In this document: positions 9,613 through 42,410 of the stretch, in pieces | Layout: each line of letters begins with the position of its first letter | How positions within the stretch are numbered: the stretch's first letter is position 1 | The notes under the pieces: model-generated | Database searches by the model: none | The model's input: the letters and a program-made list of their open reading frames with translations, nothing else | Told to the model about the DNA's origin: nothing | Assembly (NCBI RefSeq): GCF_003334815.1 | Contig: NZ_QOWO01000013.1 | Strand: one strand, 5' to 3' | From: Escherichia coli | GTDB taxonomy: Bacteria > Pseudomonadota > Gammaproteobacteria > Enterobacterales > Enterobacteriaceae | Length of the DNA: 64,000 nucleotides | Position numbers and translations under genes: made by a program

Positions 9613-10932
9613 ATGTTGCCGTTTCTGAAAGCGCCTGCCGATGCGCCATTAATGACTGATAAATATGAAATTGATGCCCGCTATCGCTACTGGCGTCGGC
9701 ATATTCTGCTGACCATCTGGCTGGGTTACGCGCTGTTTTACTTCACGCGGAAAAGTTTTAACGCCGCCGTACCAGAAATCCTTGCTAACGGCGTGCTCAG
9801 CCGTAGCGATATCGGCCTGTTAGCGACCCTGTTTTACATTACCTATGGCGTGTCGAAGTTTGTCTCCGGCATTGTCAGCGATCGCTCAAATGCCCGTTAT
9901 TTTATGGGGATAGGGCTTATCGCCACGGGCATTATCAACATTCTGTTTGGCTTCTCGACGTCGCTATGGGCGTTTGCCGTGCTCTGGGTGCTGAACGCCT
10001 TTTTCCAGGGCTGGGGTTCACCGGTGTGTGCGCGTCTGTTAACGGCCTGGTATTCACGTACCGAGCGCGGCGGTTGGTGGGCATTATGGAACACGGCGCA
10101 TAACGTCGGCGGCGCACTCATTCCCATTGTGATGGCAGCGGCTGCGCTGCATTACGGCTGGCGTGCCGGGATGATGATTGCTGGTTGTATGGCGATAGTC
10201 GTGGGGATTTTTCTCTGCTGGCGGCTACGCGATCGCCCGCAGGCGTTAGGTTTACCGGCGGTCGGTGAATGGCGACACGACGCGCTGGAAATTGCTCAAC
10301 AACAAGAAGGGGCAGGGTTGACGCGTAAAGAGATCCTCACCAAATATGTGTTGCTGAATCCGTATATCTGGCTGCTTTCGTTTTGCTATGTGCTGGTCTA
10401 TGTGGTCCGGGCGGCGATCAACGACTGGGGCAATTTGTATATGTCCGAGACACTGGGCGTCGATCTGGTCACGGCGAATACGGCAGTGACGATGTTTGAA
10501 CTGGGCGGATTTATCGGTGCGCTGGTAGCCGGTTGGGGCTCGGACAAATTGTTTAACGGCAACCGAGGGCCGATGAATTTGATTTTCGCCGCCGGAATTT
10601 TGCTTTCAGTCGGCTCCCTGTGGCTGATGCCATTTGCCAGCTACGTGATGCAGGCAACCTGCTTCTTCACCATTGGTTTTTTTGTCTTTGGCCCACAGAT
10701 GTTAATCGGTATGGCGGCGGCAGAGTGTTCCCACAAAGAGGCGGCAGGGGCGGCGACGGGGTTTGTCGGCTTGTTTGCTTATCTGGGGGCGTCGCTTGCT
10801 GGTTGGCCGCTGGCGAAAGTACTCGATACCTGGCACTGGAGCGGATTTTTTGTGGTTATCTCTATCGCCGCCGGGATTTCCGCACTGCTGTTACTGCCCT
10901 TTTTGAACGCCCAGACACCGCGCGAAGCGTGA
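9613..10932 (+). CDS. uhpC: Glucose-6-phosphate sensor / MFS protein UhpC
   Basis: 439 aa from the ATG at 9613; the ORF track's 9607 start is a TTG two codons upstream. Confidence 0.9.
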   Translation: MLPFLKAPADAPLMTDKYEIDARYRYWRRHILLTIWLGYALFYFTRKSFNAAVPEILANGVLSRSDIGLLATLFYITYGVSKFVSGIVSDRSNARYFMGIGLIATGIINILFGFSTSLWAFAVLWVLNAFFQGWGSPVCARLLTAWYSRTERGGWWALWNTAHNVGGALIPIVMAAAALHYGWRAGMMIAGCMAIVVGIFLCWRLRDRPQALGLPAVGEWRHDALEIAQQQEGAGLTRKEILTKYVLLNPYIWLLSFCYVLVYVVRAAINDWGNLYMSETLGVDLVTANTAVTMFELGGFIGALVAGWGSDKLFNGNRGPMNLIFAAGILLSVGSLWLMPFASYVMQATCFFTIGFFVFGPQMLIGMAAAECSHKEAAGAATGFVGLFAYLGASLAGWPLAKVLDTWHWSGFFVVISIAAGISALLLLPFLNAQTPREA

Positions 10933-10987
10933 TGCATCTCACCTTTTCACTTCATATCCGGCAAAACTAAGAAATTTTCCAGGTTTT

Positions 10988-11008
10988 GCCTGGACGCTAT
11001 CTCAGGCC
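10988..11008. promoter_or_regulatory. Candidate UhpA-binding inverted repeat in the uhpT promoter
   Basis: gcctgg-N9-caggc dyad about 60 nt upstream of the uhpT start; a tacaat -10-like hexamer lies downstream. Confidence 0.4.
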
Positions 11009-11069
11009 TGATTTGCTGCTGATTTTTACAATGCATGCCTCACGCAGGTATTCATTTCAGGAGTAACCC

Positions 11070-12461
11070 ATGCTGGCTTTCTTAAACCAGGTTCGCAAGC
11101 CGACCCTGGACCTTCCGCTCGAAGTGCGGCGCAAAATGTGGTTCAAACCGTTCATGCAATCCTACCTGGTGGTCTTTATCGGCTACCTGACGATGTACCT
11201 GATTCGCAAGAACTTTAACATCGCGCAGAACGATATGATTTCGACCTACGGGTTGAGCATGACGCAGCTGGGGATGATCGGCCTGGGTTTCTCCATCACT
11301 TATGGCGTGGGTAAAACGCTGGTTTCCTACTACGCCGACGGCAAAAACACCAAACAATTCCTGCCGTTCATGCTGATCCTCTCTGCTATTTGTATGCTGG
11401 GCTTCAGTGCCAGTATGGGCAGCGGCTCGGTTAGCCTGTTCCTGATGATTGCCTTCTACGCCTTAAGCGGCTTTTTCCAGAGTACCGGCGGTTCGTGCAG
11501 TTACTCCACCATCACCAAATGGACGCCGCGTCGTAAACGCGGGACATTCCTCGGTTTCTGGAATATTTCTCACAACCTTGGCGGTGCAGGCGCAGCAGGT
11601 GTGGCGCTGTTCGGGGCAAATTACCTGTTCGATGGCCATGTCATCGGCATGTTTATCTTCCCGTCGATTATCGCGCTGATTGTCGGTTTTATCGGCCTGC
11701 GTTACGGCAGCGACTCCCCGGAATCTTATGGCCTCGGCAAAGCTGAAGAACTGTTCGGCGAGGAGATCAGCGAAGAGGACAAAGAGACAGAATCTACCGA
11801 TATGACCAAGTGGCAGATCTTTGTTGAGTATGTGCTGAAAAACAAAGTGATCTGGCTGCTGTGCTTCGCCAACATTTTCCTCTATGTGGTACGTATTGGT
11901 ATCGACCAGTGGTCAACCGTATACGCGTTCCAGGAACTGAAACTCTCTAAAGCGGTGGCGATTCAGGGCTTTACGCTGTTTGAAGCTGGTGCGCTGGTCG
12001 GTACGCTGCTGTGGGGCTGGCTCTCTGACCTGGCGAACGGTCGCCGTGGCCTGGTGGCCTGCATCGCGCTGGCGCTGATTATCGCCACGCTCGGTGTGTA
12101 TCAACATGCCAGTAACGAATATATCTATCTGGCTTCTCTCTTTGCGTTGGGTTTCCTGGTCTTTGGCCCGCAATTGTTGATTGGTGTGGCTGCTGTTGGC
12201 TTTGTACCTAAAAAAGCGATTGGCGCTGCCGATGGTATTAAAGGCACCTTTGCTTACCTGATTGGTGACAGCTTTGCCAAGTTAGGTCTGGGAATGATTG
12301 CCGATGGGACGCCGGTATTCGGCCTTACCGGCTGGGCAGGCACCTTCGCCGCGCTGGATATCGCCGCGATTGGTTGTATCTGCCTGATGGCGATAGTGGC
12401 GGTAATGGAAGAACGCAAAATCCGCCGCGAGAAAAAAATTCAGCAGTTGACAGTGGCATAA
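11070..12461 (+). CDS. uhpT: Hexose-phosphate:phosphate antiporter UhpT
   Basis: 463 aa MFS organophosphate antiporter. Confidence 0.95.
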
Positions 12462-21920: not shown

Positions 21921-22015
21921 TGGCGGAAGATCACAGGAGTCGAACCTGCCCGGGACCGCTGGCGGCCCCAACTGGATTTGAAGTCCAGCCGCCTCACCGG
22001 AGACGACGATCTTCC
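21921..22015 (-). tRNA. selC: tRNA-Sec (selenocysteine, anticodon UCA)
   Basis: Reverse complement reads GGAAGATCGTCGTCTCCGGTGAGGCGGCTGGACTTCAAATCCAGTTGGGGCCGCCAGCGGTCCCGGGCAGGTTCGACTCCTGTGATCTTCCGCCA. Confidence 0.95.
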
Positions 22016-22307: not shown

Positions 22308-23695
22308 ATGAAGAGTGAAGTGTTGTCCGTTAAAGAGAAAATTGGTTATGGCATGGGAGACGCCGCCAGCCACATTATTTTCGATAACGTAATGTTATAT
22401 ATGATGTTCTTTTATACCGATATTTTTGGCATTCCTGCCGGTTTTGTCGGAACCATGTTTTTGGTCGCTCGTGCACTGGATGCGATTTCCGATCCTTGCA
22501 TGGGGTTGTTGGCCGATCGAACGCGCTCTCGCTGGGGTAAATTTCGTCCGTGGGTACTGTTTGGCGCACTGCCATTCGGGATCGTCTGTGTACTGGCCTA
22601 TAGCACGCCAGATCTCAGTATGAACGGCAAAATGATCTATGCAGCAATTACTTACACCCTACTTACCTTACCTTACTTTATACCGTCGTCAATATCCCTT
22701 ACTGCGCATTGGGTGGTGTAATCACCAATGACCCGACTCAGCGTATCTCGCTGCAATCCTGGCGTTTTGTGCTGGCGACCGCGGGAGGCATGCTTTCTAC
22801 TGTTCTGATGATGCCACTGGTTAATTTAATTGGCGGTGATAATAAACCACTCGGTTTCCAGGGCGGTATCGCGGTCCTTTCCGTGGTGGCATTCATGATG
22901 CTGGCATTTTGTTTCTTCACCACTAAAGAACGCGTTGAAGCACCACCTACAACAACGTCTATGCGGGAAGATTTACGTGATATCTGGCAAAACGACCAGT
23001 GGCGGATTGTCGGTTTACTAACCATTTTCAATATCCTGGCGGTGTGCGTACGCGGTGGGGCGATGATGTATTACGTCACATGGATTTTGGGCACGCCGGA
23101 AGTGTTTGTCGCTTTTCTCACCACTTATTGCGTGGGTAACCTGATTGGTTCCGCACTGGCAAAACCTCTGACCGACTGGAAATGTAAAGTCACTATCTTC
23201 TGGTGGACGAACGCCCTGCTGGCAGTGATTAGCCTCGCGATGTTCTTTGTTCCCATGCAGGCCAGCATCACTATGTTTGTCTTCATCTTCGTGATTGGTG
23301 TGTTGCATCAACTGGTGACACCTATCCAGTGGGTAATGATGTCCGATACCGTCGACTACGGCGAGTGGTGCAATGGTAAACGCCTGACCGGGATCAGTTT
23401 TGCTGGCACGCTGTTTGTGCTCAAACTGGGGTTGGCCTTCGGCGGCGCTCTTATCGGCTGGATGCTGGCTTATGGCGGATATGATGCGGCAGAAAAAGCG
23501 CAGAACAGCGCCACGATTAGCATCATTATTGCGCTATTCACGATTGTTCCGGCGATCTGTTATTTGCTGAGCGCGATTATCGCTAAACGCTACTACTCAC
23601 TCACGACGCACAATCTGAAAACCGTTATGGAACAGCTGGCTCAGGGTAAACGCCGTTGCCAGCAACAATTCACCTCTCAAGAAGTGCAGAACTAA
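22308..23695 (+). pseudogene. yicJ: GPH-family sugar:cation symporter YicJ, disrupted by a +5 frameshift
   Basis: Reading frame switches at 22671..22675 within cttac-cttac-cttac (22662..22676); ORFs 22251..22721 and 22709..23695 together span 1388 nt, i.e. 460 codons + stop + 5. Confidence 0.8.
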
Positions 23696-23704
23696 GGAAC
23701 GGCA

Positions 23705-26023
23705 ATGAAAATTAGCGATGGAAACTGGTTGATTCAACCTGGCCTCAATTTGATTCACCCGCTTCAGGTGTTCGAGGTTGAACAGCAGGATAATGAAATG
23801 GTGGTCTATGCTGCCCCCCGTGATGTGCGTGAACGTACCTGGCAGCTTGATACGCCTTTATTTACGTTGCGCTTTTTCTCCCCACAGGAAGGTATTGTCG
23901 GTGTGCGGATTGAGCATTTTCAGGGGGCGCTGAATAACGGTCCTCATTATCCGCTCAATATTTTGCAGGACGTGAAGGTCACAATCGAAAACACAGAACG
24001 TTATGCTGAGTTTAAAAGTGGCAACTTAAGCGCGCGTGTCAGCAAAGGTGAGTTCTGGTCACTGGATTTTCTGCGCAACGGCGAACGTATTACCGGTAGT
24101 CAGGTGAAAAATAATGGCTACGTGCAGGACACGAATAATCAACGCAATTATATGTTTGAGCGGCTTGATCTTGGCGTTGGCGAAACAGTTTACGGTCTGG
24201 GAGAGCGCTTTACTGCCCTGGTGCGCAATGGCCAGACGGTAGAGACCTGGAACCGGGACGGCGGCACAAGTACTGAACAGGCGTATAAAAATATCCCGTT
24301 CTACATGACTAACCGTGGTTATGGGGTACTGGTCAATCATCCCCAGTGTGTCTCTTTTGAAGTGGGATCGGAGAAAGTCTCCAAAGTGCAGTTCAGCGTT
24401 GAGAGTGAATATCTCGAATACTTTGTTATCGACGGCCCGACGCCGAAAGCGGTACTTGATCGTTATACCCGCTTTACTGGTCGTCCGGCGCTGCCGCCCG
24501 CGTGGTCCTTCGGCCTGTGGCTAACCACTTCATTTACCACCAACTACGACGAAGCGACGGTAAACAGCTTTATCGATGGTATGGCGGAACGCAATCTGCC
24601 GCTGCATGTTTTCCACTTTGACTGTTTCTGGATGAAAGCCTTCCAGTGGTGCGATTTTGAGTGGGACCCGCTGACTTTCCCTGACCCGGAAGGGATGATC
24701 CGCCGCCTGAAAGCGAAAGGACTGAAAATCTGCGTCTGGATTAACCCCTATATCGGTCAAAAATCCCCCGTCTTTAAAGAGTTACAAGAGAAAGGCTATT
24801 TACTCAAACGCCCGGACGGTTCGCTATGGCAGTGGGATAAATGGCAGCCAGGTCTGGCGATTTATGACTTTACCAATCCGGATGCCTGCAAATGGTACGC
24901 CGACAAACTGAAAGGTCTGGTCGCGATGGGCGTTGATTGCTTTAAGACCGACTTTGGCGAACGTATCCCAACTGATGTTCAGTGGTTTGACGGTTCCGAT
25001 CCGCAGAAAATGCATAACCATTATGCGTACATCTACAACGAACTGGTGTGGAACGTGCTCAAGGACACCGTTGGTGAGGAAGAAGCTGTCTTGTTTGCCC
25101 GCTCGGCCTCCGTCGGTGCGCAGAAATTCCCGGTACACTGGGGTGGCGATTGTTACGCTAACTACGAATCAATGGCGGAAAGCCTGCGCGGTGGTTTGTC
25201 TATTGGCCTTTCAGGTTTTGGCTTCTGGAGCCACGATATCGGCGGCTTTGAAAATACCGCTCCGGCGCACGTTTACAAACGCTGGTGCGCGTTTGGTTTG
25301 CTCTCCAGCCATAGCCGTTTACACGGTAGCAAATCTTATCGTGTGCCGTGGGCCTACGATGATGAGTCCTGTGATGTGGTGCGCTTCTTCACGCAACTGA
25401 AATGCCGCATGATGCCGTATCTGTATCGTGAAGCTGCGCGTGCGAACGCGCGGGGTACGCCGATGATGCGGGCCATGATGATGGAGTTCCCGGACGATCC
25501 GGCTTGTGATTACCTTGACCGTCAATACATGTTAGGCGACAACGTGATGGTTGCGCCGGTGTTCACTGAAGCGGGCGATGTGCAGTTCTACCTGCCGGAA
25601 GGTCGCTGGACACACCTGTGGCACAACGATGAACTCGACGGTAGTCGCTGGCATAAACAGCAGCACGGCTTCCTGAGTCTGCCCGTTTATGTGCGTGATA
25701 ACACTCTACTGGCGCTGGGCAACAACGATCAACGTCCCGATTACGTGTGGCACGAAGGCACGGCATTCCACCTCTTTAATCTGCAAGACGGGCATGAAGC
25801 CGTCTGTGAAGTGCCCGCTGCTGACGGATCGGTGATCTTTACTTTAAAAGCAGCACGTACTGGCAACACGATTACTGTGACTGGTGCGGGCGAGGCGAAG
25901 AACTGGACACTGTGCCTGCGCAATGTTGTGAAAGTAAATGGTCTGCAAGACGGTTCGCAGGCTGAAAGTGAGCAGGGGCTGGTGGTGAAGCCTCAAGGGA
26001 ATGCGCTGACAATTACGTTGTAA
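23705..26023 (+). CDS. yicI: Alpha-xylosidase (GH31)
   Basis: 772 aa. Confidence 0.95.
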
Positions 26024-29576: not shown

Positions 29577-30782
29577 ATGTTTCATCTCGATACTTTAGCA
29601 ACGCTTGTTGCCGCAACGCTGACGTTGCTGCTCGGGCGTAAGTTGGTCCATTCCGTCTCCTTTTTGAAGAAATACACCATACCGGAACCTGTTGCGGGTG
29701 GTTTGTTGGTGGCGCTGGCGCTACTAGTACTGAAAAAAAGCATGGGCTGGGAAGTCAACTTTGATATGTCCCTGCGCGATCCGTTAATGCTGGCTTTCTT
29801 CGCCACCATTGGCCTGAACGCCAACATTGCCAGTTTGCGTGCCGGTGGGCGTGTGGTTGGCATCTTCTTGATTGTGGTTGTTGGTCTGTTGGTGATGCAA
29901 AATGCCATTGGCATTGGTATGGCTAGCTTGTTAGGGCTTGATCCGCTGATGGGGCTGTTGGCCGGTTCTATTACGCTTTCCGGCGGTCACGGTACGGGCG
30001 CTGCGTGGAGTAAATTGTTCATTGAACGTTATGGCTTCACCAATGCGACGGAAGTGGCGATGGCCTGTGCAACGTTCGGTCTGGTGCTGGGCGGCTTGAT
30101 TGGCGGTCCGGTGGCGCGCTATCTGGTGAAACACTCCACCACGCCGAACGGTATTCCGGATGACCAGGAAGTCCCGACGGCGTTTGAAAAGCCGGATGTG
30201 GGACGCATGATCACCTCGTTGGTGCTGATTGAAACTATCGCGCTGATTGCTATCTGCCTGACGGTGGGGAAAATTGTTGCGCAACTTTTGGCTGGCACTG
30301 CTTTTGAACTGCCGACCTTCGTCTGTGTACTGTTTGTTGGCGTGATTCTGAGCAACGGTCTGTCAATAATGGGCTTTTACCGCGTCTTTGAGCGTGCGGT
30401 ATCCGTGCTGGGTAACGTAAGCTTGTCGTTGTTCCTGGCGATGGCGTTGATGGGGCTGAAACTGTGGGAGCTGGCTTCGCTGGCGCTGCCGATGCTGGCG
30501 ATTCTGGTGGTACAGACCATCTTCATGGCGTTGTATGCCATCTTCGTTACCTGGCGCATGATGGGCAAAAACTACGATGCGGCAGTGCTGGCTGCGGGTC
30601 ACTGTGGTTTTGGCCTCGGTGCAACGCCAACGGCAATCGCCAACATGCAGGCGATCACTGAACGCTTTGGCCCGTCGCACATGGCGTTTTTGGTGGTGCC
30701 GATGGTCGGTGCGTTCTTTATCGATATCGTCAATGCGCTGGTAATTAAGTTGTATTTGATGTTGCCGATTTTTGCCGGTTAA
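29577..30782 (+). CDS. gltS: Sodium/glutamate symporter
   Basis: 401 aa. Confidence 0.95.
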   Translation: MFHLDTLATLVAATLTLLLGRKLVHSVSFLKKYTIPEPVAGGLLVALALLVLKKSMGWEVNFDMSLRDPLMLAFFATIGLNANIASLRAGGRVVGIFLIVVVGLLVMQNAIGIGMASLLGLDPLMGLLAGSITLSGGHGTGAAWSKLFIERYGFTNATEVAMACATFGLVLGGLIGGPVARYLVKHSTTPNGIPDDQEVPTAFEKPDVGRMITSLVLIETIALIAICLTVGKIVAQLLAGTAFELPTFVCVLFVGVILSNGLSIMGFYRVFERAVSVLGNVSLSLFLAMALMGLKLWELASLALPMLAILVVQTIFMALYAIFVTWRMMGKNYDAAVLAAGHCGFGLGATPTAIANMQAITERFGPSHMAFLVVPMVGAFFIDIVNALVIKLYLMLPIFAG

Positions 30783-39368: not shown

Positions 39369-39658
39369 GGTTCTCTCCCTAAAAATCTGTCTGGCAGGGT
39401 AGCGATTTGTGCGCATTGTCACGATTGAGATTTTTTAAGGGGAGGGGAAATTGATAACTTGTAGTTATGTGAAATCGCTATTTTCTGTAGCAGAGATGCA
39501 TTCTTCTGACTTCTTGTCTGAGAAAATGCATAAGAAAAAATAGGTTAAAACTGAGGGGGGAAAAGAAAGGTGCAATATTTAGCCATTGTGTTCACTGCAC
39601 CTGGACCTTGGCTTACGCATCGGGTGTCTCAATCAACAAAAAGAGTTTTTAGTTTCTG

Positions 39659-40703: not shown

Positions 40704-41567
40704 TTATTCGATGTTCTGAATCTGCTCGCGCATCTGCTCAATCAACACTTTCAGCTCGATGGCGGAGTTTGTCACTTCGGCATTGATAGACTTCGACGCA
40801 AGAGTGTTCGACTCGCGGTTGAACTCCTGCATCATAAAATCCAGACGACGACCAACCGCTTCTTTTTTCTTCAGAATGTTGTAGGTCTCTTTGACATGCG
40901 CTTCGAGGCGATCCAGTTCTTCGGCAACGTCAATTCGTTGTGCCAGCAGAACCAGTTCCTGCTCCAGACGGTTGTTTTCCAGTTGCACCTGAGCATCTTC
41001 CAGCTTCGCGACCAGACGCTCACGCTGCCATTGCAGGATTTCCGGCATATGGGAGCGGACTTTGACCACTTCGGCGGTGACGCCTTCCAGACGCTGCTCG
41101 ATCAATGCTTTCAGTGCCTGACCTTCGGTTTCGCGCGCGACAATAAAGTCGTCCAGCGTACCATCCAGCGCCGCGAGAATTTCAGCGGCAATGGCGTCAA
41201 GATCCTGCTCCTGGGCTGCCATCACGCCCGGCCAGCGTAGAATATCAACCGGGTTGATTTCCCCTTCGTCACTCTGCATTTTTACCCAGTTCGCGGCAGT
41301 TACCAGCTGTTTAGCCAGTTTTTCGTTGAGGATCAGCTCACCTTGCGCGCTAACATCTGGCTCATAGCGCAGGGTACATTCCACTTTACCGCGCGTCAGG
41401 CGAGAACGAATACGCTCGCGAACGACAGGTTCAAGGCTACGGAACTGCTCCGGCAGACGAAAGTAAGTTTCCAGATAACGCTGGTTTACCGAGCGCATTT
41501 CCCAGGTTGCGCTCCCCCATTCACCCTTGATTTCACGCCGGGCGTAGGCGGTCATACTGCGGATCAT
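40704..41567 (-). CDS. yicC: YicC-family stress-induced protein
   Basis: 287 aa. Confidence 0.9.
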   Translation of the reverse strand: MIRSMTAYARREIKGEWGSATWEMRSVNQRYLETYFRLPEQFRSLEPVVRERIRSRLTRGKVECTLRYEPDVSAQGELILNEKLAKQLVTAANWVKMQSDEGEINPVDILRWPGVMAAQEQDLDAIAAEILAALDGTLDDFIVARETEGQALKALIEQRLEGVTAEVVKVRSHMPEILQWQRERLVAKLEDAQVQLENNRLEQELVLLAQRIDVAEELDRLEAHVKETYNILKKKEAVGRRLDFMMQEFNRESNTLASKSINAEVTNSAIELKVLIEQMREQIQNIE

Positions 41568-41693
41568 AGACGTTCCTGTTTATAAAAGGAGAGGTGGAAG
41601 GATTATAGCCATCGATGCCTTGTCAGGATAGGAATAACCGCCGGAAGTCCGTATAATGCGCAGCCACATTTGTTTCAAGCCGGAGATTTCAAT

Positions 41694-42410
41694 ATGCGTC
41701 CAGCAGGCCGTAGCAATAATCAGGTGCGTCCCGTTACCCTGACTCGTAACTATACAAAACATGCAGAAGGCTCGGTGCTGGTCGAATTTGGCGATACCAA
41801 AGTGTTGTGTACCGCCTCTATTGAAGAAGGCGTGCCGCGCTTCCTGAAAGGTCAGGGCCAGGGCTGGATCACCGCAGAGTACGGCATGCTGCCACGTTCT
41901 ACCCACACCCGTAACGCTCGTGAAGCGGCGAAAGGTAAGCAGGGTGGACGCACAATGGAAATCCAGCGTCTGATCGCCCGTGCTCTTCGCGCGGCAGTAG
42001 ATTTGAAAGCGCTGGGTGAGTTCACCATTACGCTGGACTGCGACGTGCTTCAGGCTGATGGTGGCACGCGTACCGCGTCGATTACGGGTGCCTGCGTGGC
42101 GCTGGTAGATGCGCTACAGAAGCTGGTGGAAAACGGCAAGCTGAAAACCAATCCGATGAAAGGGATGGTAGCCGCAGTTTCTGTCGGAATTGTGAACGGC
42201 GAAGCGGTTTGCGATCTGGAATACGTTGAAGACTCTGCCGCAGAGACCGACATGAACGTAGTGATGACCGAAGACGGGCGCATCATTGAAGTGCAGGGGA
42301 CGGCAGAAGGCGAGCCGTTCACCCATGAAGAGCTACTCACCTTGTTGGCTCTGGCCCGAGGGGGAATCGAATCCATTGTAGCGACGCAGAAGGCGGCGCT
42401 GGCAAACTGA
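41694..42410 (+). CDS. rph: Ribonuclease PH, apparently full length
   Basis: 238 aa from [10 protein letters not shown]... to ...[18 protein letters not shown]; 5-G run at 42360..42364 keeps the frame open. Confidence 0.9.

Follow-up and report, generated by a model that had tools for sequence, protein, structure and literature searches.

Repeat-based contingency loci comprise many units, exhibit wide copy-number polymorphism and fast switching, and mostly affect surface or restriction-modification genes. Known phase variation in E. coli relies on inversion of DNA and on Dam methylation, not on long repeat tracts, and the species is not known for repeat-tract switching. The array analyzed here, a pentanucleotide CTTAC present three times in tandem (x3) within the E. 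coli transporter gene yicJ, resembles the tetra- and pentanucleotide tracts of Haemophilus and Neisseria in that a frame-shifting 5-nt unit is located near the 5' third of the coding region and that the change is reversible in principle. It differs from them in that the contingency loci of these genera are many-unit and polymorphic, whereas the yicJ array comprises 2-3 units, is nearly monomorphic and resides in the gene of a metabolic transporter. With bacterial pseudogenes generated by slipped-strand mispairing it shares the gain of a whole unit, the premature stop, the otherwise undecayed gene, and recurrence at one site in unrelated lineages. Nothing essential distinguishes it from these pseudogenes; the array has here just two units, yet gain, loss and a +5 insertion in a shifted register are all known from it. 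We conclude that yicJ in the stretch of 64,000 nucleotides under analysis (hereafter "the window") has very probably become a pseudogene by a genuine, recent +5 frameshift of the slipped-strand type, i.e. by an ordinary mutation at a low-rate hotspot. It is an undescribed instance of a well-known mutation type, and a literature search on yicJ returned no published mention of the CTTAC x3 allele.

According to papers cited in PMC11157272, yicJ and yicI form an operon, the alpha-xylosidase YicI acts on xyloglucan oligosaccharides, and deletion of yicJI lowers culture fitness (Reperant et al. 2011, as cited in PMC11157272). In the RefSeq annotation of the orthologous stretch, yicJ appears as a "glycoside-pentoside-hexuronide family transporter" between tRNA-Sec (selC) and yicI, and both neighbours are common to the window and K-12. 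The window represents a phylogroup-A, K-12-like chromosome. Its repaired yicJ sequence is identical to that of the K-12 YicJ (WP_000834439.1), a GPH-family symporter encoded in the yicJI operon, but unlike the K-12 gene, it is frameshifted after codon 121. The coordinates of the relevant features are collected in Table 1.

Table 1. Features of the yicJ region, in window coordinates, with the basis of each assignment
Feature	Position	Strand	Description and basis
tRNA-Sec (selC)	21921..22015	-	Upstream neighbour, context only; ARAGORN
yicJ pseudogene (GPH-family, MelB-like sugar:cation symporter)	22308..23695	+	1388 nt versus 1383; RefSeq annotation of the orthologous stretch, identity to K-12 after repair
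Truncated ORF	22308..22721	+	121 native residues and 16 out-of-frame residues (PYFIPSSISLTAHWVV), then TAA at 22719-22721; translation
CTTAC x3 tandem repeat	22662..22676	+	Two copies in the wild type; one 5-nt unit attributed to slipped-strand duplication
Remnant downstream ORF	22709..23695	+	328 codons from TTG; native YicJ residues 134-460; called as a separate gene by gene callers (gene 10402-11388 of locus L007)
yicI, alpha-xylosidase, intact, 772 aa	23705..26023	+	3' gene of the yicJI operon; ORF list, orthologue annotation

Tandem Repeats Finder describes the array as having a period of 5 and 3.8 copies (22662-22680), the perfect CTTAC units being followed directly by an imperfect fourth unit, TTTA. 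It is the sole threefold pentanucleotide tandem of the 64 kb window, for which we calculate a chance expectation of about 0.06 such sites (64,000 x 4^-10). Frame 0 of yicJ runs from the ATG through 137 codons to the premature TAA, while the second frame opens at 22604, has the TTG at 22709 as its earliest start codon and stops at 23693-23695, so that the two ORFs share 13 nt (22709-22721). Deletion of 22671-22675 from the sequence yields an ORF of 1383 nt, with 460 codons and a stop, in which every base agrees with the K-12 yicJ (100% identity). Removal of five nucleotides in any register within the array restores the frame equally, hence it cannot be told which unit is the "extra" one. These analyses agree with what the initial annotation observed in the sequence, as translation and the repeat scan confirmed all its coordinates for the frames and the repeat, the single 460-codon frame it expected after removal of 22671..22675 turned out to be that of K-12, the gene is indeed yicJ by both the RefSeq annotation of the orthologues and the alignment to MelB (i.e. 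a GPH-family, MelB-like transporter), and the truncated product of 137 aa that it predicted is both obtained by translation and present in public records.

The state of the array before the insertion was assessed by comparison with complete genomes. A 101-nt query spanning the array found matches in 5,421 of 5,426 complete E. coli genomes; a single genome matched with at least 99% identity, and the next best matches all showed 95.0% identity over a span of 96 nt, which corresponds to two copies. Three copies of CTTAC occur in none of the 5,421 genomes with the locus, and all except one of them (5,420) lack any +5 allele at the array. In the alignment with K-12 (CTTACCTTAC versus CTTACCTTACCTTAC), whose array has two units, the insert repeats the neighbouring unit base for base. 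From these comparisons, the ancestral array is one of two CTTAC copies. The closest complete genomes align with the window with a bit score of 22129 over 12 kb, which fits zero mismatches and one 5-nt gap. Because the nearest relatives are identical over this length except for the 5 nt, and the rest of the gene is undamaged, the insertion must be very recent, and within the lineage of the window it is private to one clone. Thus, the locus exhibits an exact copy of a unit beside its source, a relative whose array is a unit shorter and whose frame is unbroken, a premature stop, and (see below) recurrence of the same change. The initial annotation had regarded the +5 frameshift as consistent with slipped-strand duplication, and the two-copy ancestor and the identity of the insert to its neighbouring unit, which are typical of such a duplication, support this. 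The alignment to other E. coli yicJ genes that it recommended identifies two copies as the norm and three as present in 0 of 5,421 complete genomes; since no complete genome carries three copies, the intact orthologues with three copies that would have spoken against a frameshift do not occur among them.

We considered whether the third copy could be an artefact of sequencing or assembly, with two copies in the true genome. The copy number of this isolate is known from assemblies, and three copies are absent from all complete RefSeq genomes. On the other hand, the same allele recurs in different strains, namely in one assembly from NCBI and several Logan assemblies that derive from separate runs, and duplication of a 5-nt unit is untypical as a platform error. 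Comparison with a K-12 record (NZ_CP010440.1) reveals 13 SNPs and three indels in 64 kb, so that we rejected the idea that the window is K-12 itself, and no complete RefSeq genome matches the window exactly; besides the one in the array, the indels are of 1 nt each, at positions 39555 (dinD-yicG) and 49825 (rfaQ-waaA) of the window, and both are intergenic. The only ORF in the window with a length changed relative to K-12 is yicJ, and no further frame-breaking indel is present in the 64 kb, which argues against general indel noise in the assembly. We regard an artefact as extremely unlikely and rejected it, given the recurrence of the allele in independent assemblies and runs and the lack of a second broken ORF in the window. 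An assembly error hiding two real copies had been named in the initial annotation as an outcome against its own reading; the presence of the allele on no fewer than 10 contigs, which stem from separate runs and different assemblers, speaks against it.

The recurrence of the allele was revealed by a search for the exact 137-aa product in a collection of about 15 billion proteins, which identified CAM9259390.1, GDS71144.1 and products from Logan assemblies; at least 10 contigs, assembled from different sequencing runs, encode this product. We fetched five loci coding for this product (L007-L011), and all five contain CTTAC x3. One of them (L007, contig CBDBYT010000018.1 of GCA_965212685.1) agrees with the window without a single difference over 20.4 kb; this contig is common to two samples, and three further similar places were found. 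With the four remaining loci, which differ from the window, the contigs make up four backgrounds; the other three are those of L008 from SRR18481740 (27 mismatches per 8.5 kb, with an integrase adjoining selC and two further similar places), L009 from ERR9716617 and L011 from SRR12495246 (37-38 mismatches per 8.5 kb, near EHEC-type strains), and L010 from DRR223649 (202 mismatches per 8.5 kb, i.e. 2.4% divergent). Judging from bit scores, the complete genomes nearest to L008 (with approximately no mismatches) and to L009 (with approximately one) have two copies. L010 shows SNPs of its own background at distances of 25 nt (left) and 9 nt (right) from the array, and since they flank it so closely, the third copy has not been imported, which makes at least two origins certain. 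L008 and L009/L011 have their closest background-specific SNPs further out (220-490 nt on the left side, 230-1180 nt on the right), and at such distances the x3 allele could have been imported on a short recombination tract, so that only two origins are beyond doubt. Four origins are nevertheless the simplest reading of these sequences and a likely one.

Public data contain other alleles at the same array. A CTTAC x1 (-5) allele is present on two metagenome contigs (L012 and L013), whereas the products expected from zero, four, five or six copies are absent from the collection of about 15 billion proteins. Comparison of copy number, which the initial annotation had suggested across isolates, yields one, two and three copies in public sequences. 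In addition, the O111:H8 strain 7-58 72A (L001), whose yicJ is marked in RefSeq as "frameshifted", has, a few bases along, a +5 insertion in a shifted register, a perfect duplication of ACTTT of the wild type, and the Logan assembly SRR14865951 (L014) carries the same ACTTT allele and is identical to 7-58 72A over 3.4 kb. We examined whether this insertion could be the same event as x3, and rejected this possibility: the two alleles differ by one base, and L009 is, by bit scores, approximately one mismatch from the nearest two-copy strains and approximately four from 7-58 72A. From these differences, the insertion in O111:H8 is probably a separate event, and common descent of the two alleles followed by a substitution is not favoured.

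As a control, we searched for the products of a one-unit gain or loss at three other twofold repeats in yicJ (TTAC at nt 341, TTAAT at nt 509 and ACTC at nt 1283). Five of the six control products are absent from the protein collection, and the sixth, of 173 aa, matched a partial protein that breaks off where its contig ends, agrees with the wild-type prefix and is uninformative. As these control alleles were not found, the CTTAC array slips more often than comparable sites in yicJ, which may be owed to its true length of about 2.8 units and to the extra CTTAC located 7 nt upstream. Other forms in which yicJ is broken are also found in public data, e.g. one of 171 aa with PLVN at its end (66 contigs) and one of 199 aa (49 contigs), as well as a 139-aa frameshift form of Salmonella Choleraesuis yicJ on 97 contigs. 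The abundance of such broken forms is consistent with loss of yicJ being frequently tolerated.

The most probable mechanism behind these data begins with misalignment of the nascent and template strands by one unit in CTTAC-CTTAC during replication; in the wild type, this pair is followed by the imperfect unit TTTAt and preceded by the CTTAC 7 nt upstream. Such a slip would yield the third CTTAC, and the additional 5 nt shift the frame of yicJ past codon 121, with 16 wrong residues read before the stop at 22719-22721. Loss of one unit would be expected to restore yicJ exactly. Independent slips of the same array have also occurred in other E. coli backgrounds, so that it represents a modest hotspot, in a gene that can tolerably be lost. 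The structure of the repeat, its two-copy ancestor, the truncation and the recent and recurrent nature of the change follow directly from the sequences, whereas slippage as the mechanism, the loss of transport and lowered yicI expression by polarity, both considered below, are deductions.

To predict the effect on the protein, we compared the repaired YicJ with the melibiose permease MelB of Salmonella (PDB 4M64), to which it aligns over residues 6-446 with E=1.2e-55. The homology thus extends over the full length once the frame is repaired, while in the window the frame does not remain intact for all helices. It is lost from residue 122, which by the MelB alignment is located in helix IV, and the 137-aa product retains approximately three and a half transmembrane helices, counted from its N-terminus. 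Residues Y123-T124 and N127-I-P-Y of YicJ align to Y120-T121 and D124-I-P-F of MelB; in MelB, Y120, T121 and D124 belong to helix IV and take part in the sugar and cation site. Since this motif is lost together with the later helices, the transporter would be non-functional, and the 137-aa product of the window should be inactive.

Function could in theory be retained by programmed frameshifting, or by assembly of the 137-aa and 328-aa fragments into a split transporter. The 13-nt overlap of the ORFs could permit re-initiation, and the split halves of LacY can complement one another. Nonetheless, native residues 122-133, which form the core of helix IV and contain the counterpart of the MelB Y120/T121/D124 motif, are missing from both fragments, which renders a split functional transporter implausible. 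We also found no in-frame slippery heptamer of the X XXY YYZ type between 22604 and 22721, i.e. in the frame overlap, and the orthologues examined all have a single 460-codon frame, with the frameshift conserved in none. As there is neither a slippery heptamer nor an orthologue that keeps the shift, we rejected a programmed ribosomal frameshift, and we regard the probability that yicJ still works in either of these ways as close to negligible.

The consequences mainly concern annotation. In the window, yicJ should be annotated as a pseudogene, and its 137-aa and 328-aa ORFs, which some public records list as two genes, do not deserve separate entries. The strain represented by the window probably cannot import the substrate of YicI, i.e. 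xyloglucan-derived alpha-xylosides. The frameshift leaves about 980 nt of untranslated mRNA ahead of yicI (start at 23705), and it is a reasonable inference that Rho-dependent polarity possibly lowers yicI expression. A scan for promoters and terminators returned only weak consensus matches, e.g. a 5-pair stem at 22749-22764, just past the premature stop, and we did not count it as evidence.

The remaining question is whether the array acts as a switch. The initial annotation had offered phase-variable expression of the transporter as a possible outcome, and in its strong form this would make the array a contingency locus, selected as a fast reversible switch for yicJ and, via polarity, for yicI. 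In agreement with such a role, the change involves a whole unit and is exactly reversible, alleles with one, two and three copies all occur naturally, three copies arose more than once, and other twofold repeats in yicJ show no such alleles. These features have to be weighed against a tract of only 2-3 units, the lack of any +5 allele in 5,420 of 5,421 complete genomes, the products of x0, x4, x5 and x6 that are missing among about 15 billion proteins, and a target that is a sugar transporter of the cytoplasmic membrane rather than a surface or restriction-modification protein. Moreover, several samples with the contig or the gene neighbourhood of the window all have three copies, and this stability counts against rapid switching. 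The array has neither the long tract nor the broad spread of copy numbers typical of contingency loci, and our findings therefore do not support the proposal of phase variation, which we consider very unlikely. To a weaker variant, in which the array would serve as a recurring, reversible, low-rate toggle (x1/x2/x3) that switches yicJI-dependent alpha-xyloside uptake off and on under niche selection, we assign just a small chance; if it were true, yicJ would represent a primitive metabolic contingency locus. With yicJ understood instead as a pseudogene formed by an ordinary mutation, recurrence of the 5-bp slip in unrelated backgrounds provides a clean case of a two-unit repeat as a mutational hotspot, and hotspots of this kind bear on the interpretation of homoplasy in phylogenies and in genome-wide association studies.

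Comparison of the loci also revealed several differences in the surroundings of yicJ. A phage-type integrase, indicative of an island, adjoins selC just upstream of yicJ in several strains with an altered copy number (L008, 8137-9318; L010, 409-1593; L012, 118-1302), while K-12 and strain NT1F10 have at this position a rhuM remnant alone. In the contig from ERR9716617 (L009, 5938-6756), nlpA is split into ORFs of 160 aa and 92 aa, which makes a second pseudogene in this x3 strain probable. MG1655 classically carries the rph-1 frameshift; rph is intact both in the window (41586-42410) and in NZ_CP010440.1 (L005, 22269-22985), a record labelled K-12 MG1655. Strain NT1F10 possesses, between dinD and yicC, an island of about 10.8 kb (L004, 6207-17048) with a tyrosine integrase and a P4-family primase, which is missing from the window (junction near 40704-40724) and from K-12. 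Finally, in non-K-12 backgrounds a 288-aa ORF with no Pfam match is located between gltS and recG (L008 and L009, 18478-19344; L010, 10756-11622; L011, 9180-10046); it is not present in the window or in K-12, and the alignment of the window breaks there at 30782/30955.
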